From assembly GCA_031269735.1 (NCBI GenBank), contig JAISYS010000008.1, positions 16-64,015 of the forward strand: 64,000 bases of DNA, read 5' to 3'. Positions 6,520 to 63,085 of this stretch are shown here, piece after piece. The notes under the pieces are model-generated. The model worked only from the letters and a program-made list of their open reading frames with translations. It did no database searches and was not told where the DNA came from. Origin of the DNA: Candidatus Endomicrobiellum cubanum. GTDB taxonomy: Bacteria > Elusimicrobiota > Endomicrobiia > Endomicrobiales > Endomicrobiaceae. The stretch's first letter is position 1, and every line of letters begins with the position of its first letter. Made by a program: the position numbers and the translations under genes.

Positions 6520-7077
6520 ATGAATCAACCTCGTTTAAAAAAGGTTTATCAAGAAAGTGTAGTAAACGAATTAAAGAAACAGTTTAGTTTAAAGAATACT
6601 CATCAAATTCCTAGTCTTAGTAAGATTGTTATTAATATTGGTTTAAGTGAAGCAAAAGATAATATTAAAGTTTTAGATATTGCGTCTGCAGAACTTGCAT
6701 CTATTACTGGACAAAAACCGTTAGTATGTAGAGCAAAAAAATCTGTATCTAACTTTAAATTGCGTCAGGGAATGCCAATAGGTATTAAAGTAACGTTGAG
6801 AAATGCGATGATGTATGAGTTTTTAGATAGACTTATAAATGTAGCAATCCCTCGTATAAGAGATTTTAGAGGGATAGAGCCTAATGGTTTTGACGGACAA
6901 GGGAATTTTAATTTAGGACTTACAGAACAATACATATTCCCAGAGATTAGTATCGAAAAGTCAGATAAAGCTAGAGGTATGAATATTACTATAGTAACAA
7001 CGGCCAAAAAAGATGAGCAAGCAAAATCTTTGCTAGAGGCGCTTGGCATGCCGTTTAAAAAAAGAGATAATAAATAG
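6520..7077 (+). CDS. rplE: 50S ribosomal protein uL5
   Basis: 185 aa, RLKKVYQE...NFNLGLTEQYIFPEI; synteny. Confidence 0.97.
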   Translation: MNQPRLKKVYQESVVNELKKQFSLKNTHQIPSLSKIVINIGLSEAKDNIKVLDIASAELASITGQKPLVCRAKKSVSNFKLRQGMPIGIKVTLRNAMMYEFLDRLINVAIPRIRDFRGIEPNGFDGQGNFNLGLTEQYIFPEISIEKSDKARGMNITIVTTAKKDEQAKSLLEALGMPFKKRDNK

Positions 7078-10000: not shown

Positions 10001-10019
10001 AAGGTTTTTAGATAGACCC
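10001..10019 (+). repeat. Family-1 intergenic repeat, right-end motif only (aaggtttttagatagaccc)
   Basis: Matches the right ends of copies at 13197-13215, 21122-39, 38893-907 and 26489-503. Lies in an unusual 240-bp rplO-secY gap. Confidence 0.5.
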
Positions 10020-10049
10020 ATAAATCCAAATGATAACAGGGATAAAGAT

Positions 10050-11393
10050 ATGTTAAAAAGTCTTTCTGACATTTTTAGGGTACCTGAACTTAGAAAAAAA
10101 GTAATCTTTACATTGCTTATAATAGTTGCTTATAGAATTGGTGCTACTGTTCCTATTCCTGGTATAAACAGTGAAGCTGTAAAATCTTTATTTGCTGCGC
10201 AAAGTAATGGTTTACTTGGATTTTTAGATATGTTTTCTGGTGGAGCTTTAAATAGGATGTCAGTTTTTTCTATGGGTATTATGCCATATATTAACGCGTC
10301 TATTATAATGAGTTTATTGCAGGGAGCGCATATAATACCTTATTTAGACAGACTTGCTAAAGAAGGTGAACAAGGAAGAAAAAAACTTACGCAAATTACA
10401 AGATATGGAACCATTGTATTAGGTGCTATACAATCTTTTGGATTAACTATGGCAATAACAAAATTGCCTACACCTTCTGGTATCCCTATAGTTGTTGATC
10501 CTTCGTGGTCATGGATTGCTCTAACAGGAACCACTCTTGTTACAGGTACTGTACTGATTATGTGGCTTGGCGAACAAGTTACAGAAAGAGGTATAGGTAA
10601 TGGGATTTCTATTATAATATTTTCAGGCATTGTAGAAAGGCTTCCTCATGCAGTTATGAGTGTTATAAAACTTGTGCAAATGGAAGAGCTTTCAATACTG
10701 TTTGCTTTAACTTTAACAGCTATAGTAGCGGCAGTTTTAATTATTGTTGTATGGGTAGAGACGGCTCAGAGAAGAATCCCTATTCATTATGCAAAAAAAA
10801 TGGTTGGTAGAAAAACTTATGGTGGACAGACTTCTTTTTTGCCTATAAAAGTTGACCAATCAGGTGTTATAGCTGTTATATTTTCAATGTCTATACTATC
10901 TGCCCCTCTTACTATAGCGCAGTTTGCTCCTGACTGGACAATGTTTGGTTATCCTTTAGCTAAAAAAATTATGGAATGGTTTAATGGTAGTTCTGTAATA
11001 TATAGTCTAGTTTATGCATTTTTAGTTATATTTTTCTGTTATTTTTATAATTCAATATCTTTTAATCCTAAAGATTTAGCAGAAAATATGAAAAAATCTG
11101 GTGGTTTTGTACCTGGTATAAGACCTGGTGAGCCGACTTCTAACTATATACAAAAAGTTTTGGAAAGAGTTACCCTTGGTGGTGCGTTGTTTGTTGCTGC
11201 GATTGCAGTCCTCCCAGACTATTTACGTTCTGCGATGAGTGCACCATTTTTTTTTGGAGGGACGTCCTTACTTATTGTTGTAGGTGTAGCTCTTGACACA
11301 GTCGGGCAAATAGAATCACATTTGATTATGCGACATTACGATGGGTTTATGAAAGAGGGGCGTATAAAAGGACGTTGGTTCAACATTAAGTAG
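10050..11393 (+). CDS. secY: Preprotein translocase subunit SecY
   Basis: ORF track opens at TTG 9972. ATG 10050 gives the typical N-terminus MLKSLSDIFRVPELRKKVIFTLL. Ten-TM protein in spc-operon position. Confidence 0.95.
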   Translation: MLKSLSDIFRVPELRKKVIFTLLIIVAYRIGATVPIPGINSEAVKSLFAAQSNGLLGFLDMFSGGALNRMSVFSMGIMPYINASIIMSLLQGAHIIPYLDRLAKEGEQGRKKLTQITRYGTIVLGAIQSFGLTMAITKLPTPSGIPIVVDPSWSWIALTGTTLVTGTVLIMWLGEQVTERGIGNGISIIIFSGIVERLPHAVMSVIKLVQMEELSILFALTLTAIVAAVLIIVVWVETAQRRIPIHYAKKMVGRKTYGGQTSFLPIKVDQSGVIAVIFSMSILSAPLTIAQFAPDWTMFGYPLAKKIMEWFNGSSVIYSLVYAFLVIFFCYFYNSISFNPKDLAENMKKSGGFVPGIRPGEPTSNYIQKVLERVTLGGALFVAAIAVLPDYLRSAMSAPFFFGGTSLLIVVGVALDTVGQIESHLIMRHYDGFMKEGRIKGRWFNIK

Positions 11394-11395
11394 TT

Positions 11396-11570
11396 GGGCT
11401 AGTCTTTAAATTTGTACTTCCTTATGCGGTGGCTCATATATTTTAATCATATGCTTCGCCGTCGCAAGCGTTGTCTAAATTTAAAATTCTGCGCTTTGAG
11501 ATAGAGAGTTTTTGTAGAAATGTGGGTTTACGTTTTGTCAAAACGAGTGTTGCCTAAATTTAAAAGTGTT
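11396..11570 (-). repeat. Family-1 intergenic repeat, diverged/expanded copy (secY-adk spacer)
   Basis: gggctagtctttaaa...ccttatgcgg...cttcgccgtcgcaagcgtt...ttttgtcaaaa aligns by eye with the 26808-26945 copy. Boundaries are uncertain. Confidence 0.4.
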
Positions 11571-11587
11571 AAAAATACAAGGAAAAA

Positions 11588-12217
11588 ATGAATTATATAC
11601 TTTTAGGTCCTCCAGGAGCAGGGAAAGGTACACAAGCCAAAAATATTGTAGACAAGTTTGGGTTAGTACATTTGTCTACAGGAGAGATGTTTAGAGAAGC
11701 TAAAAAATCAGATGAAACTATAAGTAAACTTGTTGCTTCCGGGCAACTTATTTCAGACGAATTAGTTGTAAATATGATCAAAAAACATCTTTTGAAAGAG
11801 GGTGTAAAAAAAGGGTTTCTTTTAGATGGGTTTCCTAGAACAGTAAACCAAGCTAAGTCTCTGGATTTAATACTTAAATCAGAAAATATTAAAATAGATG
11901 CAGTATTTTTTATAGACTTAAAATTTGAAGAAATAATCAAAAGAATATCAGGAAGAAGAATTTGTTCCTGTGGAGCAAGTTATAATTTGTATTTTATTCC
12001 TCCAAAAGAGTCTAATAAATGCGATGAATGCAATAAAGATCTTATTCAAAGAGATGATGATAAAGAAGAAATTGTAAAAAATAGGCTTGATGTTTATGAG
12101 AGTCAAACAAAACCTTTAGTTGAGTATTACAAGAGGCAAGGTTTTTTAATTGAAATAGACGGGTCAAAATCTGAGTCAGAAGTTTTTAAACAAATAAGTG
12201 AAAATATTAAACCGTAA
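11588..12217 (+). CDS. adk: Adenylate kinase (zinc-lid type)
   Basis: 209 aa, [14 protein letters not shown]-loop; lid CSC...CDEC. Confidence 0.96.
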
Positions 12218-12291
12218 AGTTTCTGTTCTTTAAAGATTTTATAGACTGTTATGTGCTTAAACAGATAACAACGTTTATTTTGGAGTGTTAA

Positions 12292-13077
12292 GTGTTTTTA
12301 AAAAATCTTAATATCGAGTTAAAATCGGCAAGAGAAATTGAAAAAATGAAAATTGCCGGTAAAGTTGTAGGCGAAATTTTAGAGAAGCTTTCTGAAATAA
12401 TAAAGCCTGACATAGCAACTAAAGATATAGATATATTTGTAGAAAAATATATAAAGTCATCAAAAATGAAGCCAGCTTTTTTAGGGCAAAAAGGTATAAG
12501 ATATCCTTTTCCGGCTTCAGCTTGTGTGTCTATAAATGACGAAGTTGTACATGGGATTCCAAATGTTTCTCGTGTGCTTAAAGAGGGCGATATTGTTTCT
12601 GTAGATATTGGCGTTATTTATGAAGGATATTATGGAGACGGAGCAAAAACTTACGCAGTCGGTAAAATTTCCGATACCGCATCCAAACTTCTTAAAGTTA
12701 CGGAAATATCTTTAGAAAAAGGCATTGAGCAGGTGTTGATAGGCAACAGACTTGGTGATATTTCTTGGGCAGTGCAAAATGCAGTAGAAAGTGAAGGTTT
12801 TTCTGTTGTTCGGGATTTTGTTGGACATGGTATAGGTAGATCTTTACATGAAGATCCTCAAATTCCAAATTACGGGAAGGCAGAAACTGGTGTAAAGCTT
12901 ATGGCTGGTATGGTTTTGGCAATTGAGCCTATGGTTAATGTAGGAAGTCATGAAGTTGTTATGTTAGACGATGGCTGGACTGTTGTTACAAAAGATGGCA
13001 GTTTAAGTGCTCATTTTGAGCACACAATTGCTATAACAGAACATGGTTATGAAATTTTGACAGGGTGTTTTTCTTAA
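12292..13077 (+). CDS. map: Methionine aminopeptidase type I
   Basis: 261 aa, GTG start, ...VVHGIP...DIGV...GHGIG...EHT metal-ligand pattern. Confidence 0.95.
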   Translation: MFLKNLNIELKSAREIEKMKIAGKVVGEILEKLSEIIKPDIATKDIDIFVEKYIKSSKMKPAFLGQKGIRYPFPASACVSINDEVVHGIPNVSRVLKEGDIVSVDIGVIYEGYYGDGAKTYAVGKISDTASKLLKVTEISLEKGIEQVLIGNRLGDISWAVQNAVESEGFSVVRDFVGHGIGRSLHEDPQIPNYGKAETGVKLMAGMVLAIEPMVNVGSHEVVMLDDGWTVVTKDGSLSAHFEHTIAITEHGYEILTGCFS

Positions 13078-13078
13078 A

Positions 13079-13215
13079 GCCTCTAATTCGTATGATTGAT
13101 GTGAACTTTTTGACAAGGCAATGCAAAAATATAGGACTTATTGTGCAATATTTTTTAACGTAGCAGTGTCTGAAAAGGCTCAGTAAGTATACGTGTTAAG
13201 GTTTTTAAAGAGACC
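13079..13215 (+). repeat. Family-1 intergenic repeat, full-length copy (map-infA spacer)
   Basis: 137 bp. Contains gcctctaa...gtatgattgatgtgaactttttgacaaggcaatgcaaaaat...ttttttaacgtagc...cagtaagt...taaggtttttaaagagacc. Aligns with copies at 21016, 45948 and the reverse complement of 26808. Confidence 0.7.
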
Positions 13216-13228
13216 TCGAGGGTATAAA

Positions 13229-13450
13229 ATGACTAAAGAAGAAAAAATTGTTGTTGAAGGTAAGATACTAGAAGCTTTGCCAAACGCAGTTTTTAGAGTA
13301 GAACTTATTGAGGGAGGGCATATTATTTTAGCGCATATTTGCGGGAAAATGAGAATGCATTACATAAAGATCCTACCGGGAGATAAAGTTAAGGTAGAAC
13401 TTTCTCCTTATGATTTGTCTAGAGGAAGAATAGTATATAGAGAAAAGTAA
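13229..13450 (+). CDS. infA: Translation initiation factor IF-1
   Basis: ATG 13229 preceded by [31 protein letters not shown]...; the 13193 GTG extension would run through the repeat. Confidence 0.95.
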
Positions 13451-13510
13451 AGGGTTTTTGTAGATACGCGTAAATATTAAAAAGTCTCAATTGAAAAATA
13501 CCCAAAGGGA

Positions 13511-13539
13511 TTTAAAAGTTATTATTTTTGTGGTATAAT
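13511..13539 (+). promoter_or_regulatory. Candidate sigma70 promoter with extended -10 (TTTAAA-N17-TGgTATAAT) ahead of rpmJ-rpsM-rpsK-rpsD-rpoA-rplQ
   Basis: tggtataat at 13531-13539 and tttaaa at 13511-13516. AT-rich background makes false positives likely. Confidence 0.35.
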
Positions 13540-13584
13540 GCATAGACTTTATTAGAGTATAGAACTTATATGGAGTATATCAAA

Positions 13585-13698
13585 ATGAAAGTCAGAACAT
13601 CTGTAAAACCTATTTGTCAAAAATGTAAAGTAGTAAAACGTAAAGGTGTAGTAAGAGTAGTATGTCAAGATCCTAGACATAAGCAAAGACAGGGATAA
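13585..13698 (+). CDS. rpmJ: 50S ribosomal protein bL36 (Cys3His form)
   Basis: Not in ORF track (37 aa): [37 protein letters not shown]; between infA and rpsM. Confidence 0.95.
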
Positions 13699-13750
13699 AT
13701 TTTGGGGAAAATATAATTAAAATAGAAGCACAGAATTTGGAGGATGATAA

Positions 13751-14140
13751 ATGGCTCGTGTAGCTGGAGTAGATTTACCAAAAAGCAAAAGGCTTGATAT
13801 AGCATTAAGATATATTTATGGTATCGGATCTGCAATATCAAATGAAATTATTGCAGAACTTTCTTTAGATCCTGCTAAAAGAGTTAAAGATTTAACGGAA
13901 GAAGAAGTCAATAGAATCAATAATCTTATTACTAAAAATTTAAAAGTAGAGGGCGATCTTAGAAGAGAAATTCAATCAAATATAAAAAGACTTATAGAAA
14001 TAGCCAGCTACAGAGGGTCTAGACACAGAAGAAATCTTCCTGTAAGAGGACAAAGAACCAAAACAAATGCACGTATAAGACGTGGCAAGAGAAAAACTAT
14101 AGGTGCAAGTAAAGCTCAAGATCAAGGTAAAAAAGGTTAG
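13751..14140 (+). CDS. rpsM: 30S ribosomal protein uS13
   Basis: 129 aa, [14 protein letters not shown]...[22 protein letters not shown]. Confidence 0.97.
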
Positions 14141-14217
14141 TTTTTAAGTTTTTTGGAATAAAAAATAATGGGTTTCTCTAAAAATTTTAATTGTAGATAA
14201 TAAAATACGGAGGAAGT

Positions 14218-14610
14218 ATGGCAGATGAAAAAAAGACCGGTAGTACCAAAAAGAAAAAGTATACCGGGTCAGTAGCAAAAGCATATATATTGTCAACATT
14301 TAACAATACTATTGTTAATATAACAGATGAAAGAGGAAATACTTTAACATGGGCATCAGCAGGAGGGTCAGGCTTTAAAGGAACAAAAAAAGGTACTCCT
14401 TTTGCAGCGCAGCTTGCAGCTTCTTCTGTAGGTAAAAAGGCTTTGGATATGGGCGTAAAACAAGTAGCTGTTTTTGTTAATGGTCCAGGACCTGGAAGAG
14501 AGACTGCTATTAGAGGTTTACAGAGTGCAGGTCTTGACATAACAGCTATAAAAGATGTTACGCCGGTACCTCACGATGGTTGTCGTCCACCAAAACCAAG
14601 AAGAGTATAA
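14218..14610 (+). CDS. rpsK: 30S ribosomal protein uS11
   Basis: 130 aa, ...[22 protein letters not shown]...[17 protein letters not shown]. Confidence 0.97.
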
Positions 14611-51249: not shown

Positions 51250-53733
51250 ATGGCAACACATAGACTTGTAAGATGGAGTAAAGATGCCTTCAATTTTCTA
51301 CAATCTGCTGATGACAATAGTATAGTTTTAGATCTTGTTATATCTTATGCCTGTGCTACTCAGACAGGAGAGGGATTTGAAGAACTTGTTAATACAATAA
51401 ATAGTGAAAATATAAAGTGTAAAATAAAAAAAGTTAATATTACCGATACCTCTTATTTGTATAGATATAGCATTCTAGAATTTTCTAAATATTTAAACCC
51501 AGATATTCCAACTTTGTGGTATTTAAGAAATAAAGATTCTATAGATAAGTTACAGGTCGATACAGAGATAAAATCATGGGCAGTAGGGCTCCAAAGCGAT
51601 GAATTTGAGTACTGGAATAAACAAATAAGGACTGATTTTGCTGGAGATGAAAAAGGCAATGGTATAATAGAAGGGTTCAAAGAAATAGTAATGGATACAG
51701 TAAAAACATCAATCGCTAAAACGGGTGATACATTTGAACATTGTGTAGACTTTATATTAGAAGAATGTGCCTATACCTGTGCGCATTTTCAAAATGTAAT
51801 CATGGTGTATCCAATGACTCTACGGCCGATAGAACCTATAATTAAACGCTATAATTTGAATATTCGTCAACTTGCGTACAAGATGTCAGATTATGCAGAA
51901 AAACATAAAAATCGTATTCTAAGTGCAAACAATATGGATCGTGAAATAATTGAATTTATTACTCATAGAGCTGACAATGTAAACTTTTTTATAATAGATA
52001 AATTGGGGAATCTTTTATATAAAAATGAAGCATGTAAAAAGCAAGTAAGAGACATGCATGTAAGAGGTCTAGGTCAAAAGACATGGGAAACAACGCTTGA
52101 TGTTATAAAGTCAAAAAAGCAAGTTATTATAGAAGAAAAATCTAAAGAAGGGCAAAGGTACCTTTCTGTTAAAGCTCCTCTGATGGTGGATGGTAAAGTA
52201 GAAGGAGTGATAGGGTTAGCGGTTGATATAACGGATAAAAAAAGGTTAGAAGAATTAGAAATTCTAAACAAGTTAAATGAAGAAAGAAAAGTTATAGCAA
52301 AGCGTGTAGAGCATGATATAAGTGGACCGTTAAGTGTATTGGAATTATTTGTATTAAATAATAAAGATATATCAGATAAAGATAGAATGCAAATAGATGC
52401 TGTAGTAACACGAATAAGAAATATATCAGGTAGTTTGTTTAAGGAATATAATAAGGATAGCGGATTGGAATTGGAAGGCAGTAAAATGTCAAAGAAATAT
52501 ATTTGTATAGATTTATGTTTGGAAGAGATAATTGCTGAAAAGAGATGTCAATATAATATAGATTCTAAAGTGACGTTTAGATATACTTCGCCAATGGATA
52601 AGAATAAGATATTTATAAAAGGATATTATTCTGATTTTTGCAGGATGATATCAAACTTGATAAATAATGGAATAGAAGCCATTGGCTCTAAAGAAGGTAT
52701 TGTAGATATAAAGTTAAGTGTAAAAGACGCGAAAGTGGAAGTAAAGATAAGAGATAGCGGGTTAGGAATGCCTCAAGAAATGATAGATAAAATAATGGAA
52801 GATAAAGAAATAGGCACAACAAAGAAAGAAGGCCACGGGATAGGAATGGGACAAATTAAGAGTGTCTTGAGTGAGATCAAAGGTGAAATGAGGATAAAGT
52901 CAAAAACAAATTTCGGATCTAATAATGAAGTATTGGTGCTTCCCACAGGTACAGAGGTTACATTGATATTTCCGCAGTCAGAAAGTCCAGAATGGAGTGC
53001 AGATAAAATAACATTACACAAAGAGGATATAGTAGTAGTATTAGATGATGATATTATGGTTCATGAAACTTGGAAAGGACGTTTTCAGGAGTATTTGGAA
53101 GATATTAAAGTTGAGTATTTTTTACAAGCTCAAGAAGCTATAAATTATATAAATTCAAAAAAAGAGGAAGAAGTCTTTCTACTTGTAGATTATGAATTAA
53201 GAGGCCAAGGAATAAATGGTGTGGAGGTAATAGAGGAGTGTAAAATGCAAAATAGATCGATATTAGTGACAAAAAATATACATGCGGTAAGAATAAAGGA
53301 TTTTGATAAGAAAAGTGAATTTTTAAAGATATTACCGAAAATGTACGTGAAAAACGTACAGATATTATTAGAGGAAAAGGGAATAAAAAAAAAGGATAAA
53401 GCAGATTTTGTATTTGTAGATAACGATGATCTTTTTGCAAGCGTATTAAAGAAAGTTTTGGAACTAAAAGGGTTAAGAGTAGATGTATATACAGATGTAG
53501 AAGACTTTATTAAGAATTTAGATAAATATTCAAAAGATACAAAGATAGTAACAGATAATAATTTGGGTTGTAATAAGATAGATGGATTTGAACTAGCAAA
53601 GAAATTAAATGAAATTGGATATATAAGATTGTACATGATATCTGGAAGTGAATTTAGTAAAAATGAAATTCCATCATATCTTAAAGTTATGTTGAAAGAA
53701 GGAGCAGTGATAGATAAGTTGCTAATGATGTAA
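51250..53733 (+). CDS. Soluble hybrid sensor histidine kinase: unassigned N-terminal domain (~225 aa) - PAS - HisKA-like - HATPase_c - two receiver-like domains
   Basis: 827 aa, no TM segment. PAS end motif VDITDKKRLEELE; H-box RVEHDISGPL; N/G boxes NLINNGIEA, DSGLGMP, GHGIGMG. REC-like segments VVVLDDD...LLVDYEL and FVFVDND...IVTDNNLG..IDGFEL. Confidence 0.85.
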   Translation: MATHRLVRWSKDAFNFLQSADDNSIVLDLVISYACATQTGEGFEELVNTINSENIKCKIKKVNITDTSYLYRYSILEFSKYLNPDIPTLWYLRNKDSIDKLQVDTEIKSWAVGLQSDEFEYWNKQIRTDFAGDEKGNGIIEGFKEIVMDTVKTSIAKTGDTFEHCVDFILEECAYTCAHFQNVIMVYPMTLRPIEPIIKRYNLNIRQLAYKMSDYAEKHKNRILSANNMDREIIEFITHRADNVNFFIIDKLGNLLYKNEACKKQVRDMHVRGLGQKTWETTLDVIKSKKQVIIEEKSKEGQRYLSVKAPLMVDGKVEGVIGLAVDITDKKRLEELEILNKLNEERKVIAKRVEHDISGPLSVLELFVLNNKDISDKDRMQIDAVVTRIRNISGSLFKEYNKDSGLELEGSKMSKKYICIDLCLEEIIAEKRCQYNIDSKVTFRYTSPMDKNKIFIKGYYSDFCRMISNLINNGIEAIGSKEGIVDIKLSVKDAKVEVKIRDSGLGMPQEMIDKIMEDKEIGTTKKEGHGIGMGQIKSVLSEIKGEMRIKSKTNFGSNNEVLVLPTGTEVTLIFPQSESPEWSADKITLHKEDIVVVLDDDIMVHETWKGRFQEYLEDIKVEYFLQAQEAINYINSKKEEEVFLLVDYELRGQGINGVEVIEECKMQNRSILVTKNIHAVRIKDFDKKSEFLKILPKMYVKNVQILLEEKGIKKKDKADFVFVDNDDLFASVLKKVLELKGLRVDVYTDVEDFIKNLDKYSKDTKIVTDNNLGCNKIDGFELAKKLNEIGYIRLYMISGSEFSKNEIPSYLKVMLKEGAVIDKLLMM

Positions 53734-55599: not shown

Positions 55600-57354
55600 A
55601 TGTTGTTTTCTAAAATGTTAATACCCACATTAAGGGAAGCTCCCCAAGATGCTGATATCATTTCTGCTAAGTTAATGATAAGGGCAGGCATGATACGTAA
55701 ATTAGCATCTGGATTCTATGAATTTTTACCTTTAGGACTTAAAGCTTTAAAAAAAGTGGAAAATATTATAAGAGAAGAAATGAACAATGCTAATGGACAA
55801 GAAATATCTTTACCTTTGGTGCTTCCTAAAGACTTATGGCTTAAAACTGGCAGATGGAACGTTTATGGCAAAGAGCTTTTTAGGCTTAAAGACAGGAAAG
55901 AATCCGAGTTTTGTCTTGCTCCAACCGCAGAGGAAGTTGTTACAGAATTAATTAGTAAAGAAGTTAAGTCTTACAAACAGTTGCCATTGATGTTATACCA
56001 GTTTGGAACTAAATTTAGGGACGAAATCCGTCCCCGTTTTGGTATTATGCGTTCTAAGGAATTTTTAATGAAAGACGCATATTCTTTCCACGTAGACGAG
56101 TCAGATTTAGATACATATTACAAAAGAATGTACGATGCATATGTTAATATTTGTAATAGATGTGGTTTTAAATTTAGGCCTGCTGAGGCTGCAAGTGGAG
56201 CAATAGGTGGGTCACAGTCTTGCGAATTTATGGCTCTTGCAGATACAGGAGAAGAAGAAATTACTTGGTGTAATTGTGGGTATGGAGCAAACAGCGAAAA
56301 AGCAGAGAGCGTAATTGCTACTTTTTCTCCAAAAGAAGACCTTCTTAATATGGAGGAAGTTTCAACCCCCGATGCTTGCACTGTTAGTGATGTATCAAAG
56401 TTTTTAGGGATGTCTTATGAAAAGTTTATAAAAACTATGATTTATTTAGCAGATGGTATTCCAGTTGTTGTTTTAATAAGAGGTGATTACGACATAAACG
56501 AAATAAAACTCCAAAGTTTGCTTGAAGCAAACGAAGTTACCCTTGCTGACGAGGGAACTGTGATTTCTATAACGAAGTCTCCCAAGGGATTTGCAGGTCC
56601 TGTTGGTCTTAAAGATGTAAAAGTAATAGCGGATTTATCTGTAATAGAAATTTCAAATGCTGTAACAGGAGCAAACAAAAAAGATTTCCACATAAAAAAT
56701 GTAAATTACAAAAGAGACTATAAAGCTGACATAATAGCAGATGTTAGAAAAGTAAAGAAAGGGGATATTTGCCCAAAATGCAAAAAAGAAAGTTTACAAT
56801 TTTCTAGAGGTATAGAAATAGGTCATATATTTAAATTGGGCACAAAATATTCCAAAGCCTTAAATGCTGTATATCTAGATGTGCAAGGCAAAGACAATCT
56901 TGTTGTTATGGGTTGTTATGGTATAGGAGTTACAAGAATACTAGCTGCAACAATAGAACAGTCTCATGACGACAATGGTATAATTTGGCCGGATAATATT
57001 GCTCCTTTTGAAGTTGTTATTGTGCCGATAAACTATACTGATAAGCAGACAAAAGAAGTGACAGATGTAATTTATAAGGGATTGTCATGTAAAGGGCTAG
57101 ATGTTCTAATTGATGATAGAGATGAAAGGGCTGGTATTAAGTTTAAAGATGCAGATTTAATAGGCACACCTTACAGAATAGTAGTGAGTCAAAAAGGTTT
57201 ACTAAATAATACTGTTGAACTTAAACATAGAACTTCTGATAAAAATGCAATTAAACTATTAAACCCGCAAGATGCCATAAATGAAATATTGAGAATATAT
57301 AATAAAATAGATAATAAATTTATAGAGGCGAATTTCAATGAAAGATTTTTTTAA
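55600..57354 (+). CDS. proS: Proline-tRNA ligase (bacterial type with INS editing domain)
   Basis: 584 aa, class II motifs (FRDEIRPRFGIMRSKEF, GCYGIGVTR), ends in anticodon-binding domain. Confidence 0.96.
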   Translation: MLFSKMLIPTLREAPQDADIISAKLMIRAGMIRKLASGFYEFLPLGLKALKKVENIIREEMNNANGQEISLPLVLPKDLWLKTGRWNVYGKELFRLKDRKESEFCLAPTAEEVVTELISKEVKSYKQLPLMLYQFGTKFRDEIRPRFGIMRSKEFLMKDAYSFHVDESDLDTYYKRMYDAYVNICNRCGFKFRPAEAASGAIGGSQSCEFMALADTGEEEITWCNCGYGANSEKAESVIATFSPKEDLLNMEEVSTPDACTVSDVSKFLGMSYEKFIKTMIYLADGIPVVVLIRGDYDINEIKLQSLLEANEVTLADEGTVISITKSPKGFAGPVGLKDVKVIADLSVIEISNAVTGANKKDFHIKNVNYKRDYKADIIADVRKVKKGDICPKCKKESLQFSRGIEIGHIFKLGTKYSKALNAVYLDVQGKDNLVVMGCYGIGVTRILAATIEQSHDDNGIIWPDNIAPFEVVIVPINYTDKQTKEVTDVIYKGLSCKGLDVLIDDRDERAGIKFKDADLIGTPYRIVVSQKGLLNNTVELKHRTSDKNAIKLLNPQDAINEILRIYNKIDNKFIEANFNERFF

Positions 57355-58756
57355 GTTAAAAGATAATAATACAAGTTTGTCCACTGAGATTCTTGCAGGT
57401 CTTACTATATTTTTTACAATGGCTTATATAATTTTTGTGAACCCTGCTATTTTGTCTTTAAATCCAGGAATGTCGTGGACAAGCGTTTTTGTAGCCACAA
57501 TTTTAGCTTCGTCTGTAGGTACTATGATAATGTCTTTTTTTGCTAATGTTCCTTTTGCATTGGCCCCTGGCATGGGGGCTAATGCTTTTTTTACATTTGT
57601 TTTATGCAAACAAATGGGTTTTATATGGCAAGAAGCTCTTGCTATAGTTGTTCTATGCGGGTTGCTTATTATTCTTATTACAGTAACAAAAGTAAGGAAA
57701 GTTATTGTTGAAGCCATTCCTGATTTTCTTAAAGATGCTATAAGTGGAGGCATAGGTTTATTTATAGCTTATATTGGTTTTAAAAATGCATCGTTCTTAA
57801 ATTTTTTGTCAGACGCTGGTAATTATATTATGCTTGACAACGGCAGTGTGATTTCTAATAGCCAGGTGGTTCCTACATTAACTTTGTTTAATAATCCTCA
57901 TGCTTTGCTTGGCCTTATTGGATTAATAGTTACTGTAATTCTTTTTGTAAAAAAGGTAAAAGGAGCAATTTTTTTAGGAATAGTAATTTCTATTCTTTTT
58001 GGTATTCCTTTGGGTCTTGTTGATATTTCTAAGATAAGATTATTTGATTTTAGTTCTATTACATCAATTAAAGATGTTGCTTTTTGTGCGTTTGGTTCTA
58101 ATGGTATGGGGATGCTCTTCTCTGACATAAATAAAATAATAGCTACCTCGACGGCACTTCTGGCATTATTGCTTTCAGTAACATTTGATGCTATAGGCAC
58201 ATTTATAGGTACTGGCAGAATAAGTGGCATTTTTGATACCAAAGACGAAAATAAATTAATTTCTCAAAAAGGATTTTCTACAAAATTTGAGAAAGCTTTA
58301 TTTGCAGATGGACTAGCATCTTGTATAGGTGGTATATTGGGTACAAGTAGCGTTACAACTTATGTAGAAAGTGCTGCTGGAATTTCTCAAGGAGGCAGAA
58401 CTGGTCTTACAGCTTTTGTTGTAGCAGTAATGTTTTTGTTGTGTTTGCCTTTTGCATCTTTGTTTAGTATAGTCCCGCCAGAAGCTACAGCTCCAGCTTT
58501 AATTATTGTAGGCGTACTTATGATGTCTTCAGTAATGAGAATTAGATGGGCAGATTATCAAGAAGCCATTCCTGCATTTTTGACTTTAAGTGTTATGGCT
58601 TTTGCTTTTAATATAAGTTATGGAATAGCTGCAGGTTTTATATTTCATTGTATATTAAAACTAATTCAAAAAGAGGCAAAAGATATACACCCGATTTTAG
58701 CATGTACAGCGGTATTATTTTTGATTAATTTCATTATAATGGCAATTAGAAAATAA
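57338..58756 (+). CDS. NCS2/AzgA-family purine (adenine/guanine/hypoxanthine) permease
   Basis: 472 aa, polytopic. N-terminus FKLKDNNTSLSTEILAGLTIFFTMAYIIFVNP typical of the family; 17-nt overlap with proS. Confidence 0.85.
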   Translation: MKDFFKLKDNNTSLSTEILAGLTIFFTMAYIIFVNPAILSLNPGMSWTSVFVATILASSVGTMIMSFFANVPFALAPGMGANAFFTFVLCKQMGFIWQEALAIVVLCGLLIILITVTKVRKVIVEAIPDFLKDAISGGIGLFIAYIGFKNASFLNFLSDAGNYIMLDNGSVISNSQVVPTLTLFNNPHALLGLIGLIVTVILFVKKVKGAIFLGIVISILFGIPLGLVDISKIRLFDFSSITSIKDVAFCAFGSNGMGMLFSDINKIIATSTALLALLLSVTFDAIGTFIGTGRISGIFDTKDENKLISQKGFSTKFEKALFADGLASCIGGILGTSSVTTYVESAAGISQGGRTGLTAFVVAVMFLLCLPFASLFSIVPPEATAPALIIVGVLMMSSVMRIRWADYQEAIPAFLTLSVMAFAFNISYGIAAGFIFHCILKLIQKEAKDIHPILACTAVLFLINFIIMAIRK

Positions 58757-58811: not shown

Positions 58812-59513
58812 ATGAAAAAACTAATTTTTCTCATGTTGTTGTTTGCTCAAGCGCTTTATGCTTCTGAACAAATGGTTGAAATTTCTGTAGAAATTTCTGA
58901 AATAAATGAAAATAAAAGAAAAGAGTTGGGTATAGAGTGGCCTAGCTCAATTTCTGTTGAAGAAAATAACATTCCTGCTATAATAGAATCAGGTGCTTTC
59001 CTTAGAAAAACTAACTTTTCAGCGGCTCTTAAAGTCTTAGAAGATAAAGGCGCTTCAAAGGTTTTATCCAAACCTAAACTTATTACAAAATCTTCTACTA
59101 GTGCTAGTTTTATGGTTGGAGGGGAGTTCCCTATAGTTACAAATGGGCTAGGCACTTCTTCTGTTAAATGGAAAAAATATGGGATTATTATGAACATAAC
59201 ACCCACAGTTTTGAATAATAATAAGATTGATATTACAATTGATACAGAACTTTCAAGAATAGACAACTCTATAAATGTTGCAAATTATCCGGTTATTACA
59301 ACAAGGCAAGCTTCCTCCCATGTACAAATAAAAAATGGGCAGACAATAATTTTAGCTGGACTTTTAGAAACTTCAAAAGATAAATGTATTAAAGGTATTC
59401 CGTTGTTGTGCGATATTCCTTTGTTGGGCGCATTGTTTAGAACAACAAAGTACATTGATAAACAAACCAATGTTTTAATTTTTGTTACCCCGAATTTAAT
59501 TAAAAATGAGTAA
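58812..59513 (+). CDS. Minimal secretin: signal peptide plus secretin core only (233 aa)
   Basis: MKKLIFLMLLFAQALYA signal. ...AALKVLEDKGASKVLSKPKLITKSSTSASFMVGGEFPI...GIPLLCDIPLLGALFR...VLIFVTPNLI matches the secretin C-domain pattern. No N0/N1-type domains. Confidence 0.8.
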   Translation: MKKLIFLMLLFAQALYASEQMVEISVEISEINENKRKELGIEWPSSISVEENNIPAIIESGAFLRKTNFSAALKVLEDKGASKVLSKPKLITKSSTSASFMVGGEFPIVTNGLGTSSVKWKKYGIIMNITPTVLNNNKIDITIDTELSRIDNSINVANYPVITTRQASSHVQIKNGQTIILAGLLETSKDKCIKGIPLLCDIPLLGALFRTTKYIDKQTNVLIFVTPNLIKNE

Positions 59514-59697
59514 CTCTAAAGGTCAGACTTTACTTGAATTTGTTCTTGTTTTTGCCGTACTTCTTATGGCAACGTCAGGAACACTTATTTTGTATAAAAA
59601 ATTTTGGAAATCTAAATATAAAAAAGTTTCCATGTTTTCAGGAATAACAGCAAGTGCTTTAAAGATTTCAAAGCATAAGGCCAGTTATGTTAAATAG
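59506..59697 (+). CDS. Flp-sized prepilin-like protein (class III signal peptide / TadE-like N-terminus)
   Basis: 63 aa, MSNSKG-QTLLEFVLVFAVLLMATSG; 8-nt overlap with the secretin gene. Confidence 0.65.
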   Translation: MSNSKGQTLLEFVLVFAVLLMATSGTLILYKKFWKSKYKKVSMFSGITASALKISKHKASYVK

Positions 59698-60295
59698 GTT
59701 TAACAAAGGGCAAGCGTTCTTAGAAACATTGTTTGTTATTCTTTTTATAACAATTATAATGTTTACTTTTTTACAAATTTGCATTATAACTGTTGATGAT
59801 ATGGTCGCAAATGAAGTAGCGTTTGTTTCAGCCAGATCTGTAGCTGTTACGGAAAATAAGCTTAGGCTTAAAGAAGCCAAAGATAAAGCACAATTTTATA
59901 TATCGTTTTTTTATCCGTTTTCATTGTTTTCAAATAGTAATTTCAATCCTTCACATTTTGTTTTTGTAAGTAAAAAAGACTTTGAAAAAAACTTTTCTGT
60001 TCCTGATGCAAAAAATAACAAAGAATATATATTGGGTGAAGATTCTTCAGACAGTACAAATTTTGTAACGCTTTGGAAAGGCAAAAAGAAAGCAAAAGAT
60101 TATTCTGGCAAAGAACTATGTAAAGAAACTATAAAAATCTATTATTTTACGAGAGTCTTGTTCGGTTATTTAATTGCAAAGGACAATAGTATTAAAAATA
60201 GAAGGTATCAGTCTGCAAGAAATAGAATCATTCCTTCTCCAGATGAGAAATATTATTTAAAAGCATTTCCAGGAGCAAAAGAATTTGAAAAATAA
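59687..60295 (+). CDS. TadE/TadF-like pseudopilin-type protein
   Basis: 202 aa, MLNRFNKG-QAFLETLFVILFITIIMF...; 11-nt overlap with the upstream ORF. Confidence 0.6.
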   Translation: MLNRFNKGQAFLETLFVILFITIIMFTFLQICIITVDDMVANEVAFVSARSVAVTENKLRLKEAKDKAQFYISFFYPFSLFSNSNFNPSHFVFVSKKDFEKNFSVPDAKNNKEYILGEDSSDSTNFVTLWKGKKKAKDYSGKELCKETIKIYYFTRVLFGYLIAKDNSIKNRRYQSARNRIIPSPDEKYYLKAFPGAKEFEK

Positions 60296-61397
60296 ATTTC
60301 TAAAAAGCCATAAAGGACAAACTTTATATTACTTTTTAGTTTTTTTAATTATCCTTATTATTAGTTGGGCTATGATGTTAAATATTGCATATCTTATAAG
60401 AAACAGGATGCAAATGCAAAACGAAGCTGATTGCATGGCATTATCTTTAGCTACTTATAAAGCTAGGGTTTTAAATTTTTTAGCAAAGACAAATTATATG
60501 ATAGGGTCTGTCTTATCTTTAAGTACAAATCCAAGAATGATACAGTTATCATCTTATTCATCAGATAAAATAGGTGGGTGGCCTGCCAGTATGGCCCCAA
60601 GTTGCGAAAACCCAATGTCAGATATTGTACATGATGCAATTAATGTAGGGCGAAATAATAGCGTTGAAAAGACTAAACAAATCATTGAAACATTGCAAAA
60701 GTTTCAAGATATTGCAATAAAAAGTTATTTAACATATCACTATAGTATGCTTATAAATAAGAAGTATAATGTTTTGCTACTTCCTATAAAACCTGAGAAA
60801 AATTTAGGTTTAAAACGTAACTCAAAAGGTATGCAGTATTACTCTACAAAAAGTTATTGTTACTATATTGATCCCACAACACATTTTCATTTTTTAATAA
60901 GAAGCAAATATAAAAAAAGTAAGTATTCTTGGTTTGTCCAAGGAGACAAGTTCTACAATCAAAAGATTAAAGTTATTTTAAGACAAAAAAGAGCAAATAA
61001 AAAACCTTTATTTTCAAAATTTTTAAATATACAATATCCAGAAGTTATAATTTATTCTGCTGCAAGTCCGTATAATATAAAAGGAACAATGTTTCCCAGA
61101 AAAGAAGGGACTTTTACAGGCGCAACGAAATTAACTGCCTCTTTAGTGGAAACTTCGTCAGCTATACAGTATGCTTTAATGGCAAAATCCATTACCCAAC
61201 CAGCAACATTCCCTCCAGCAGGGCCCTTTATGGCCTTGGCAGAAGCTGGTTTATTTATAAATTATGCGGAAAGCAAAAGGGAAAGTATAAAATTAGTAAG
61301 CAATAAAGATAATCCAATAGATGCTTATCTTGGCGCAAAAAATGGTGGTTGGGCTGCCCATTTAGTACCATACAATGCTGTTAATGCGTATGATTAA
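60285..61397 (+). CDS. TadG-like protein (TadE/G-like N-terminal domain plus unassigned 300-aa C-terminal part)
   Basis: 370 aa, TTG start 9 nt after AGGAG. KSHKG-QTLYYFLVFLIILIISWAMMLNIAYLIRNRMQMQNEADCMALSLA resembles the TadG N-terminal pattern. Confidence 0.6.
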   Translation: MKNKFLKSHKGQTLYYFLVFLIILIISWAMMLNIAYLIRNRMQMQNEADCMALSLATYKARVLNFLAKTNYMIGSVLSLSTNPRMIQLSSYSSDKIGGWPASMAPSCENPMSDIVHDAINVGRNNSVEKTKQIIETLQKFQDIAIKSYLTYHYSMLINKKYNVLLLPIKPEKNLGLKRNSKGMQYYSTKSYCYYIDPTTHFHFLIRSKYKKSKYSWFVQGDKFYNQKIKVILRQKRANKKPLFSKFLNIQYPEVIIYSAASPYNIKGTMFPRKEGTFTGATKLTASLVETSSAIQYALMAKSITQPATFPPAGPFMALAEAGLFINYAESKRESIKLVSNKDNPIDAYLGAKNGGWAAHLVPYNAVNAYD

Positions 61398-61404
61398 TTT
61401 TTAT

Positions 61405-61433
61405 TTGACATTGTTTAGAGTTTTTTATACTAT
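61405..61433 (+). promoter_or_regulatory. Candidate promoter TTGACA-N17-TACTAT (or N15-TATACT) for tRNA-Thr
   Basis: ttgaca 61405-10; tatactat 61426-33; the tRNA starts 11 nt later. Confidence 0.45.
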
Positions 61434-61443
61434 CTATATATGT

Positions 61444-61516
61444 GCCGACGTAGCTCAGCTGGTAGAGCAGCGGTTTTGTAAACCGCAGGTCGCAGGTTCA
61501 AACCCTACCGTCGGCT
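61444..61516 (+). tRNA. tRNA-Thr (anticodon UGU), no encoded CCA
   Basis: Manual cloverleaf. Acceptor gccgacg/cgtcggc; D arm gctc-agctggta-gagc; anticodon arm gcggt-ttTGTaa-accgc; variable aggtc; T arm gcagg-ttcaaac-cctac (one C-A mismatch); discriminator t. Confidence 0.9.
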
Positions 61517-61548
61517 GATTTTTTTGTGATTTGAAAAATGAAGTTATC

Positions 61549-63085
61549 ATGAAAATAAAACTTAAAATTAGTTTAAGGATGGAGCTTGTTGTTCTAGTCG
61601 TTGCGATTGTTATATTTGTCGTGGCAGTTTTTTCTTACTTTTTTATTTCTACATATAAATCTTATTTTGTACAAACTTTTCAATTAAATACCAAAAGACA
61701 AACTTATAAACTTGCTGATTCAATTGTTAATAGTGTATCTTTAAAAAGAAATGATATTATAGAAGATTATATCGGCAATACAATACGAGAAAGTGACATT
61801 GTTTGTGTTGAAGTTTACGATAAAAACTTTAAGAAACTTGCAAGTTGTAAGATTTTAAATAAAACGTTAGAAGATATTTTAAATAATCACAAAATTAATG
61901 AGAAGGCTGATATTCTTTTTGGAAAGTCAAGAGCCATAGGATATTTTTATAAGTATAAAGGAAAAACTAGTGCTTTTGAGTATATAGCTCCTGTAATTTT
62001 TTATAGTAGTGGAAATACAGATGGCGAAATTATAGCTTTTGTAAGAGTTATTTCATCTTTTAAAAATATTGATAAAGCTTTAACAAAAATAATTAAAAAT
62101 ACTCTTTCTCTAGCAGTTTATGTTATTTTGATTAGCATAGTAGTATCTTTTTTTATTACAAGATTGTTTGTTGAGCCAATAAATAAAGTTATTAGTATTA
62201 CTAGACAAATATCACAGGGCGATTTTTCTAATAAAGTCCCCTTATTTAAAGAGATAGAATTGAGAGTTTTAGCTATATCTGTTAATATGATGTCTAGTCA
62301 TTTAAAGAGAGTTTTAGATGTATTGCACAGTGAAAAAGAAAGTTTATTAAATGCTCAAGAAAACTTAGAAATAAAAAACAAATCAAATAAAGAACTTGTT
62401 TTGAAAGAACGAAAAATGCATATAAAGTTAATAAAGGAAGAGCGTTTTTATACAATCGGTAGACTAGCAGGTTCTCTAGCACACGAAATTAAGAATCCTT
62501 TAACTAGCTTTAAAAATATTATTTATTTTATTTCAAAGACGGAAAATTTTAAAAATGAAGAAGCAAAAAAAATGTTTAATATGCTTACAGATAATGTGAC
62601 AAGAATTAATAATATTTTGACAGAGCTTTTGGATTATTCTGAACTGAATAGTTTAAACAAAACTCAAAATTGTATAGATGAATTAATTAATAAAGTCATT
62701 AAAACTATATATACCCAACAATATAAGGTTAAAAATGGATTTAAAGCATATTGCTGCTTTAACTGACAAAGAAAGTTTTAGAAAAGTAATAAGACATTTA
62801 ATTATAAATTCTGTAGATGCAATGCCATTTGGTGGTAATATCTTTATTTCTGCAGATAAAGTAGAAAATAAATTAGAGTTAAGAATAAGAGATACTGGTT
62901 TTGGTATTGATAGTGATATAATAAAGAATATTTATGAACCTTTATATACAACAAAAGTGAAAGGCGTAGGATTAGGATTGGCCATAGTAAAAGAAATTAT
63001 AGAAATGCATAAAGGCACAATCCTTTTAAATAGCAAAGTTGGTAAAGGTACGGAGTTTATTCTACATATTCCAGGTGTTTTGTAG
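61549..63085 (+). pseudogene. Membrane HAMP sensor histidine kinase split by a frameshift at an A5 run (62731-62735)
   Basis: ORF 1 (to 62766): 2 TM + periplasmic domain + HAMP + H-box LAHEIKNPL. ORF 2 (from 62735, next frame): HATPase_c (NSVDAMPFGGN, DTGFGI, GVGLGLAIV). Removing one A restores ...YKVKMDLKHIAALTDKE... Confidence 0.8.

Follow-up and report, generated by a model that had tools for sequence, protein, structure and literature searches.

The window analysed here, a 64,000-nucleotide stretch of contig JAISYS010000008.1 from Candidatus Endomicrobiellum cubanum (GenBank assembly GCA_031269735.1), carries towards its right-hand end four overlapping genes that encode a short secretin, two prepilin-like proteins (p63 and p202), and a TadG-like protein (p370). 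We consider it likely that this cassette is the outer-membrane channel and minor-pilin module of an Elusimicrobiota-type Tad (Flp, type IVc) pilus machine whose genes have been split between two places in the genome. Orthologs of the four genes are joined to the remaining tad genes in contiguous loci of basal relatives, and the Tad cores retrieved from the genus carry no secretin. An earlier reading made from the sequence alone (the sequence-only reading) had left two possibilities, either the detached outer-membrane and pseudopilus module of a split Tad-like machine or a minimal secretin system of an unrecognised kind; the contiguous basal loci and the secretin-less cores favour the former, and the latter is not supported, the orthologs being embedded in complete Tad loci.

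The genes for the secretin (58812..59513, ATG start), p63 (59506..59697, ATG), p202 (59687..60295, ATG), and p370 (60285..61397, TTG) are all intact on the + strand and encode 233, 63, 202, and 370 residues, respectively, with consecutive overlaps of 8, 11, and 11 nt that match exactly the coordinates of the sequence-only reading. Overlaps this tight suggest that the four genes are probably translationally coupled. The short secretin belongs to a family that comprises, in Elusimicrobiota, more than 100 protein clusters at 90% identity with lengths of 225–260 residues. In a comparison with a ~83%-identical relative (L065; dS ~0.8), the nonsynonymous-to-synonymous substitution rate ratio (dN/dS) was 0.117 for the secretin, 0.176 for p63, 0.248 for p202, and 0.135 for p370, and 0.06–0.14 for the housekeeping neighbours proS, permease, ispG, and greA. 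Since the cassette resembles these neighbours, it is by this measure under ordinary purifying selection, and because of the more than 100 conserved clusters and the dN/dS of 0.12–0.25, we take its open reading frames (ORFs) to be real genes and not chance ORFs.

The closest homologs are found in Endomicrobium spp. (Elusimicrobiota; termite-gut and protist symbionts). Whether such four-gene cassettes recur in related genomes had been left as a question, and the same cassette, with its overlaps kept, was found in free-living E. proavitum (complete genome, L001; 231, 64, 217, and 367 residues), in a 99%-identical contig (L002), in 'Ca. Endomicrobiellum agilis' (L007), and in L065. A suspected premature stop in the L065 ortholog of p370 proved to be its natural stop, and the gene is intact from a TTG start. 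The window and the four relatives have left-hand neighbours in common (dxr, rseP, ispG, greA, proS, and a permease gene or gcvT), and the cassette now adjoins proS and the permease gene (gcvT in some relatives). No ATPase or platform gene of a Tad machine lies within 10 kb of the cassette in L001, L002, L007, or L065. When the whole window was searched by tblastn with TadZ/A, TadB, TadC, RcpC, TadE, Flp, two A24 peptidases, PilD, and PilA, only the cassette itself was matched, in agreement with the earlier statement that no secretion ATPase, platform protein, or prepilin peptidase is encoded in it. L002 reaches ~8 kb further to the right and adds only two-component genes, SmpB, and UvrD/PDDEXK helicase-nuclease genes, so that the complete tad locus that might have been expected just outside the window is absent from this extension.

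The contiguous tad locus and its division

In the basal locus L005, the genes are contiguous in the order secretin (252 residues), proteins of 68, 178, and 381 residues, TadE, Flp, RcpC, a TadZ/TadA fusion (689 residues), TadB, and TadC. L006 (Endomicrobiales) has an A24 peptidase gene and then secretin (258 residues), a GGDEF regulator, proteins of 177 and 426 residues, TadE, Flp, RcpC, a CsgG-like protein, and TadZ/A, and the layout of L003 is similar to both, with an extra ATPase. An A24 peptidase gene stands beside the Tad loci of L003 and L006. By tblastn, the proteins of 178, 177, and 156–164 residues in the basal loci are homologs of p202, and those of 381, 426, and 364 residues are homologs of p370.

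Within the genus, the TadA sequence of the Trichonympha agilis (T. agilis) symbiont TA21, taken from the supplement of PMC8809381, was used to fetch ten Tad core loci of the Endomicrobium group; a TadA query from a basal locus gave no Endomicrobium-genus TadA among its top 120 matches. Six of the ten span TadE, Flp, or RcpC through TadZ/A, TadB, and TadC; three carry only TadZ/A, TadB, and TadC on short contigs, and the last (L014) stops within TadZ/A. No match to the secretin, p63, p202, or p370 was found in the fetched flanks of the ten loci (up to 10 kb per side), and a Pfam scan of the ORFs of at least 200 residues flanking the core of symbiont TA26 (L008) gave neither PF13629 nor an A24 peptidase. 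TA26 carries the cassette and the core in one genome, unlinked. In basal lineages, the secretin and TadZ/A matches share the size of their longest contig (58248, 41093, 33706, 245946, and 132655), and such sharing was never seen for Endomicrobium-named matches, which agrees with a split. The E. proavitum core was not retrieved in the genome scan, and its existence is taken from PMC8809381. Because the locus is contiguous in basal relatives and the cores of the genus are without the cassette genes, we conclude from this comparison that the ancestral locus was cut between the TadG-like gene and tadE in the Endomicrobium/Endomicrobiellum lineage. The split operon is an ordinary genome rearrangement, and the machine is a routine one in an unusual layout.

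The loci differ in several accessory features. The Tad ATPase of Elusimicrobiota, of ~660–700 residues, is a fusion of an N-terminal ParA/MinD-like half of TadZ type with TadA/CpaF, as seen at L005 14852–16921, L006 16350–18461, and L008 6299–8287, and many matches carry PF10609/PF01656 together with PF00437. The GGDEF gene between the secretin and pseudopilin genes of L006 (10817–11752) encodes a response regulator, and a PilZ-domain gene lies upstream of the Tad locus of L003 (4694–5062); both suggest links of the basal loci to cyclic diguanylate (c-di-GMP). Directly after its short secretin gene, L003 encodes a 341-residue T2SSE-family ATPase and a 787-residue ORF without a Pfam match (10774–14365), and this ATPase may be a second (retraction?) ATPase of that locus. 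The CsgG/FlgT_C-like gene between rcpC and tadZA in L006 has no match in Endomicrobium cores. One candidate for an alternative outer-membrane channel, the 399-residue TraF_2/DUF5723-like putative outer-membrane beta-barrel protein encoded after tadC in TA26 (L008 10108–11307), was set aside because it is not conserved, with homologs only in L068 and, fragmented, in L016. The PilD of the symbionts shows no more than a distant relationship to the TadV-type A24 peptidase beside the basal loci. The tblastn matches of the Tad core in L016 (8700–12500; Hs463_bin80) and L023 (9290–12925; Po218_bin4) are fragmented and frame-shifted, a sign that the motor module has become pseudogenised in some symbiont lineages.

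The cassette proteins and their surroundings

The exact sequence of the window secretin gave no match in a look-up, and its 99%-identical relative P0001 was used in its place. The only Pfam family that the secretin matches is PF00263 (E = 1.5e-43; 148.8 bits, cutoff 27.5), over residues 76–231, which places the core domain, including the conserved GIPLLCDIPLLGALFR segment, at 59037..59504 (+). A predicted Sec signal peptide without a lipobox Cys occupies 58812..58862 (+; MKKLIFLMLLFAQALYA↓SEQ, the arrow marking the putative cleavage site). Invariant columns in an alignment of 58 sequences are G80, P88, G103–E105, P107, P197, L199, P203, and F209, and every NCBIfam secretin model aligns by its C-terminal end only. 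The AlphaFold2 model (58 homologs), with a predicted local distance difference test (pLDDT) score of 76.6, has the signal-peptide helix at residues 3–15, the first barrel strand at 21–32, a disordered loop at 45–66, and then barrel strands up to residue 230. The 40 matches of this model at E ≤ 1e-3 in Foldseek are secretin cores without exception. The top sequence match in the PDB is RcpA (8odn; E = 9.4e-28, 100.4 bits), followed by GspD (79.7), so that by match score the secretin is closest to RcpA; only secretin residues 73–231 and RcpA residues 207–371 align. The JGI name for the homologs is CpaC.

No periplasmic N-domain (N0/N1/N3 or PF13629) was detected in the secretin by Pfam or as a folded part of the AlphaFold2 model, and no separate PF13629 gene was found in the window, as in the ORFs of at least 200 residues flanking the L008 core. 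By these sequence and model comparisons, the 233-residue protein is a signal peptide and a secretin core alone, as had been proposed from its sequence, with Pfam, AlphaFold2, Foldseek, and the RcpA alignment all in agreement. The secretin is without an N-domain everywhere in Elusimicrobiota, including the contiguous Tad loci. Because lengths of 225–260 residues fill the homolog list, the protein is, on this evidence, a member of a conserved full-length family and not the truncated fragment of a normal secretin that it might have been.

The N-terminus of p63 reads MSNSKG↓QTLLEF and that of p202 MLNRFNKG↓QAFLET, with a hydrophobic helix after it. The bona fide Flp of the Endomicrobium Tad cores reads (K/R)G↓QGMVEY and has the prepilin signature G↓QxxxE[FY], as does p63; by inspection, the KG↓QAFLET of p202 carries the same G↓QxxxE signature as this Flp. 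The KGQ resemblance of p63 to archaeal class III signals is found also in the bacterial Tad prepilins of this lineage. Mature p63 would have ~57 residues and be very basic (10 K/R, 1 D/E). Its profile scores are weak both for N_methyl (19.7 bits, cutoff 21.2) and for TadE (E = 0.22; E = 0.009 for the L065 ortholog). The Flp profiles PF04964 (Flp_Fap) and PF16982 were never matched by p63 or its orthologs, and a separate core gene of 57–59 residues does match the Flp profile in L003, L005, and L006. These comparisons suggest that p63 works like a small Tad pilin without being a member of the Flp family and that it is probably a minor or second pilin.

For p202, the matches lie in the orthologs from complete Tad loci, which score 21.7 (L006), 21.8 (L003), and 18.5 bits (L005) over the full PF07811 TadE profile; the cutoff is 22.9 bits, and the L006 and L003 matches (E ~ 2e-4) fall just under it. 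In tblastn, p202 matches L003 at 5e-18 and L005 at 6e-13. We regard p202 as a protein that works like a diverged TadE/TadF-type pseudopilin, with the window protein itself below the profile thresholds. The sequence-only reading had described the three downstream proteins as class III signal or TadE/G-like proteins with a shared KGQxxLE motif. The TadE/G part of that description stands through the orthologs, by weak links, and the class III part does not, p63 reaching 15.4 bits (E = 0.018) against the cutoff of 23.7 for PF04021, the archaeal class III signal; the motif holds for p63 and p202, and in p370 (...HKGQTLYYF) KGQ is kept with Tyr in place of Glu at +5.

In the AlphaFold2 model of p370 (pLDDT 87.8; predicted template-modelling score 0.84), an N-terminal helix of 69 residues leads into a globular domain of mixed beta/alpha structure. 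This fits a layout with a membrane helix and a long stalk at the N-terminus (residues ~10–78) and then a lineage-specific globular domain. A Foldseek search of this confident model, one of the checks that had been proposed, gave no fold match in the PDB (best E ~ 1). An exhaustive phmmer search recovered p370 at full length in about 65 representative clusters. The more remote matches, of 500–750 residues, align over residues ~5–80 only, and when scanned they carry PF13400 at the aligned place in 10 of 10 cases, above the Pfam cutoff in nine. This N-terminal module of TadG (PF13400-like) type, KGQTLYYFLVFL...RNRMQMQNEADCMALSLA, lies at 60297..60524 (+), where a TadG-type segment had been noted before. 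PF13400 is the sole Pfam family touched in the p370 family, by 4 of 53 members (best E = 4e-4), and two family members bear the NCBI name 'Tad domain-containing protein'. Homology of the p370 N-terminal module to PF13400 is well supported, as distinct from strict profile membership of the window protein, and we regard p370 as a protein that works like TadG.

On the right, a tRNA-Thr(TGT) gene (61444–61516) begins 46 nt 3' of the cassette, and the gap between it and the p370 stop contains a promoter-like site (TTGACA-17-TACTAT, 61405–61433) that is plausibly the tRNA promoter. Scans for promoters and terminators near the cassette gave chance-level results, with no above-chance promoter on its 5' side and no terminator-like site on its 3' side. 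Beyond the tRNA gene, a histidine kinase gene (61531–63085) is split into ORFs of 411 and 116 residues by a frameshift near residue 387, and L002 has an intact 512-residue HAMP/HisKA/HATPase ortholog (12740–14278); the split reflects either pseudogenisation or an error of assembly. The converse holds on the left, where the xanthine/uracil permease gene is intact in the window (57338–58756, 472 residues) and truncated or interrupted in L002 (8613–9944; 380 residues called, an in-frame stop, two high-scoring segment pairs). Further left, an 827-residue hybrid histidine kinase (HATPase_c and Response_reg; 51250–53733) corresponds to ORFs called as 722 and 91 residues in L002, and its gene coincides with an unusually strong GC skew (0.485 at 52–54 kb) without tandem repeats.

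Proposed assembly and competing explanations

Gene identities, synteny, the split, conservation, and ortholog expression are observed. The processing and assembly of the proteins are inferred from established Tad biology (PMC10499894, PMC12307814), and the presence of a core in this particular organism is likewise an inference. The ancestral order would have been short rcpA-like secretin, small pilin, TadE/F-like, TadG-like, tadE, flp, rcpC, tadZ-tadA fusion, tadB, and tadC, from which the secretin gene and its three pseudopilin-like companions either moved away or remained behind as a single unit, leaving the motor half elsewhere in the genome. The secretin would be exported by Sec and multimerise into an outer-membrane pore. 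Once an A24 prepilin peptidase had cut p63 and p202 behind the Gly of KG↓Q, these two and membrane-anchored p370 may form a priming or tip complex on the TadB/C platform, from which TadZ/A would drive Flp polymerisation through the RcpC ring and the secretin.

Several results weigh against this reading. Neither p370 nor p202 of the window has a Pfam match of its own, with p202 giving nothing at E ≤ 1, and an hhalign comparison of the p202 family with the TadE of the cores was not significant (probability 1.6%). No TPR (tetratricopeptide repeat) lipoprotein or TadD-type pilotin was seen in the window cassette. The Tad core of the window organism was not located in the genome scan (one genome per species), and a metagenome scan with the genus-level TadZ/A alignment yielded five loci, none of them from samples 3300042618 or 3300042636. 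Degraded cores also occur in Endomicrobium, as in L016 and L023, and the cassette could thus be an orphan in certain hosts. In P. aeruginosa, function depends on the docking of RcpC on the N-domain of RcpA (PMC12307814), so a secretin without the docking domain leaves its coupling to the core unexplained. Because the Elusimicrobiota secretin is everywhere without the RcpC-binding N-domain, this coupling must work differently or be absent. There is a small chance that the N-domain-less secretin is aligned with the inner membrane by other means throughout the phylum. The three pseudopilin-like proteins, whose genes have kept their overlapping arrangement with the secretin gene after the operon was divided, are candidates for this role; the fold-orphan globular domain of p370 or p202, for example, could be an adaptor between the RcpC ring and the bare barrel, and if true, this would amount to a novel way of building a type IV filament machine.

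It is unlikely that the cassette is instead a functionless, not-yet-decayed relic in an endosymbiont-type genome whose Tad core has been lost or pseudogenised. The fragmented cores of L016 and L023 fit such decay, as do the reports in PMC8809381 that the Tad region of Rs-D17 is full of pseudogenes and that three of five symbiont genomes have neither module; the histidine kinase gene directly downstream, frameshifted relative to L002, points to ongoing erosion or assembly errors. Against decay of the cassette itself, the four ORFs are intact with their overlaps preserved, their dN/dS of 0.12–0.25 at dS ~0.8 is like that of proS, gcpE, and the permease gene, the cassette is intact in all relatives examined (L001, L002, L007, and L065), and its orthologs are reported as expressed in TA21/TA26 (PMC8809381).

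A different partner is conceivable with lower probability still, namely that the cassette serves the PilA/PulG-type pilins and PilD, retained by every Endomicrobium symbiont, in a competence pseudopilus for DNA uptake towards ComEC and not in Tad adhesion. Competence was proposed in PMC8809381, where comEC and related genes are described as conserved and expressed, PilA and PilD as present in five of five genomes, and DNA transport across the outer membrane as unexplained. The strongly basic character of mature p63 (10 K/R against 1 D/E) would suit it. The cassette nevertheless tracks tadA/tadB and is lacking in three of the five genomes, all of which have PilA, PilD, and ComEC (same source). 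Its best structural relative is RcpA and not PilQ or HofQ, its ancestral linkage is to Tad genes, and its G↓QxxxE[FY] signature matches the Flp of the lineage, unlike the KG↓FTLVEF of PilA. Since DNA uptake could also be a task of a Tad pilus, this explanation differs from the split Tad machine in function more than in the identity of the machine.

No ATPase-independent type IV filament system is known in the TFF superfamily (PMC6668835), and we give hardly any credence to an autonomous minimal system in which the core-only secretin and the three pseudopilin-like proteins need no ATPase or platform: the window, and 10 kb around the cassette in L001, L002, L007, and L065, hold no such gene and the globular domain of p370 has no known fold, but the orthologs sit in complete Tad loci of basal lineages, and the cassette co-occurs with a Tad core in TA21/TA26.

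Relation to known Tad systems

Tad systems in Elusimicrobia have been reported before (PMC6668835). PMC8809381 describes a large Tad-like region in E. proavitum, Elusimicrobium minutum, and the T. agilis symbionts TA21 and TA26, states that this region is pseudogenised in Rs-D17, and has pilD kept by all. Its Data Set S1 lists the secretin ortholog as 'pilQ' (K02280) and the p63 ortholog as 'flp', both expressed and both in the phyletic class '4_TAs only' together with tadA and tadB (present in two T. agilis symbionts, absent from three other genomes). Expression is recorded there for the core as well as for the cassette. In 'Ca. Endomicrobium agilae' TA21/TA26, these genes are LE169_01960 ('pilQ', 240 residues) and LE169_01955 ('flp', 63 residues), corresponding to L007 10001–10914, and they are placed in the competence table. 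The orthologs of the secretin and p63 are therefore already known genes, listed as pilQ and flp of a Tad-like system; the passages and tables consulted make no mention of a core-only secretin, of the p202 and p370 partners, of the true Flp of the core, or of the split of a contiguous locus. A literature search for secretins described as 'mini', 'short', or 'minimal' gave no pertinent result.

With the split Tad machine, a seemingly orphan secretin becomes half of a known machine, and the break point of the locus is identified. This also helps the annotation of Endomicrobium and other Elusimicrobiota, in which p202 and p370 carry the label 'hypothetical' and the name of the secretin varies between PilQ, CpaC, and T2/T3SS protein. 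A natural, phylum-wide core-only secretin of RcpA type offers a compact test case for the parts needed in assembly, gating, and alignment, and it conflicts with the generality of the proposed model in which RcpC docks on the RcpA N-domain. The N-domain-less RcpA and its fold-orphan TadG-like partner merit structural follow-up. The finding also bears on the question, raised in PMC8809381, of how DNA or filaments pass the outer membrane in these protist endosymbionts.

Among known systems, TadE/TadF (PF07811) share with p63 and p202 the prepilin-type N-terminus (G↓xxxxE) and hydrophobic helix. TadG (PF13400), a predicted minor pilin (PMC12307814), shares with p370 an N-terminal module of the same type, without Glu5 in p370, and the modelled layout of p370, a long N-terminal helix and then a beta-sheet domain, appears pilin-like. 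These likenesses are limited to the N-terminal ~45–80 residues, the globular parts being lineage-specific. Unlike in usual tad loci, the cassette genes stand beside the secretin gene and not at the 3' end after tadD, and a separate, better-matching TadE exists in the core module. The closest parallel to the secretin is RcpA/CpaC, represented by P. aeruginosa RcpA-TadD (PDB 8odn, PMC10499894), which has a homologous secretin core; in the basal relatives, the secretin gene likewise lies inside a tad locus with rcpC, the tadZ/A fusion, tadB, tadC, flp, and tadE. The window secretin differs in being about half the size (233 residues against 426 in the solved chain) and in lacking both the VirB9-like/Ig-like N-domain (RcpA residues 28–112, PF13629) and the linker or N3 domain; no TadD pilotin gene was seen, and the secretin gene is unlinked from the other tad genes in this genus. 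In the Tad locus L004, a 316-residue secretin (10001–10951) is, like that of the window, without PF13629, but a 152-residue PF13629 protein that amounts to the secretin N-domain alone is encoded nearby (6536–6994, minus strand), and L004 may represent an intermediate on the way, or an alternative route, to a secretin polypeptide without its N-domain.

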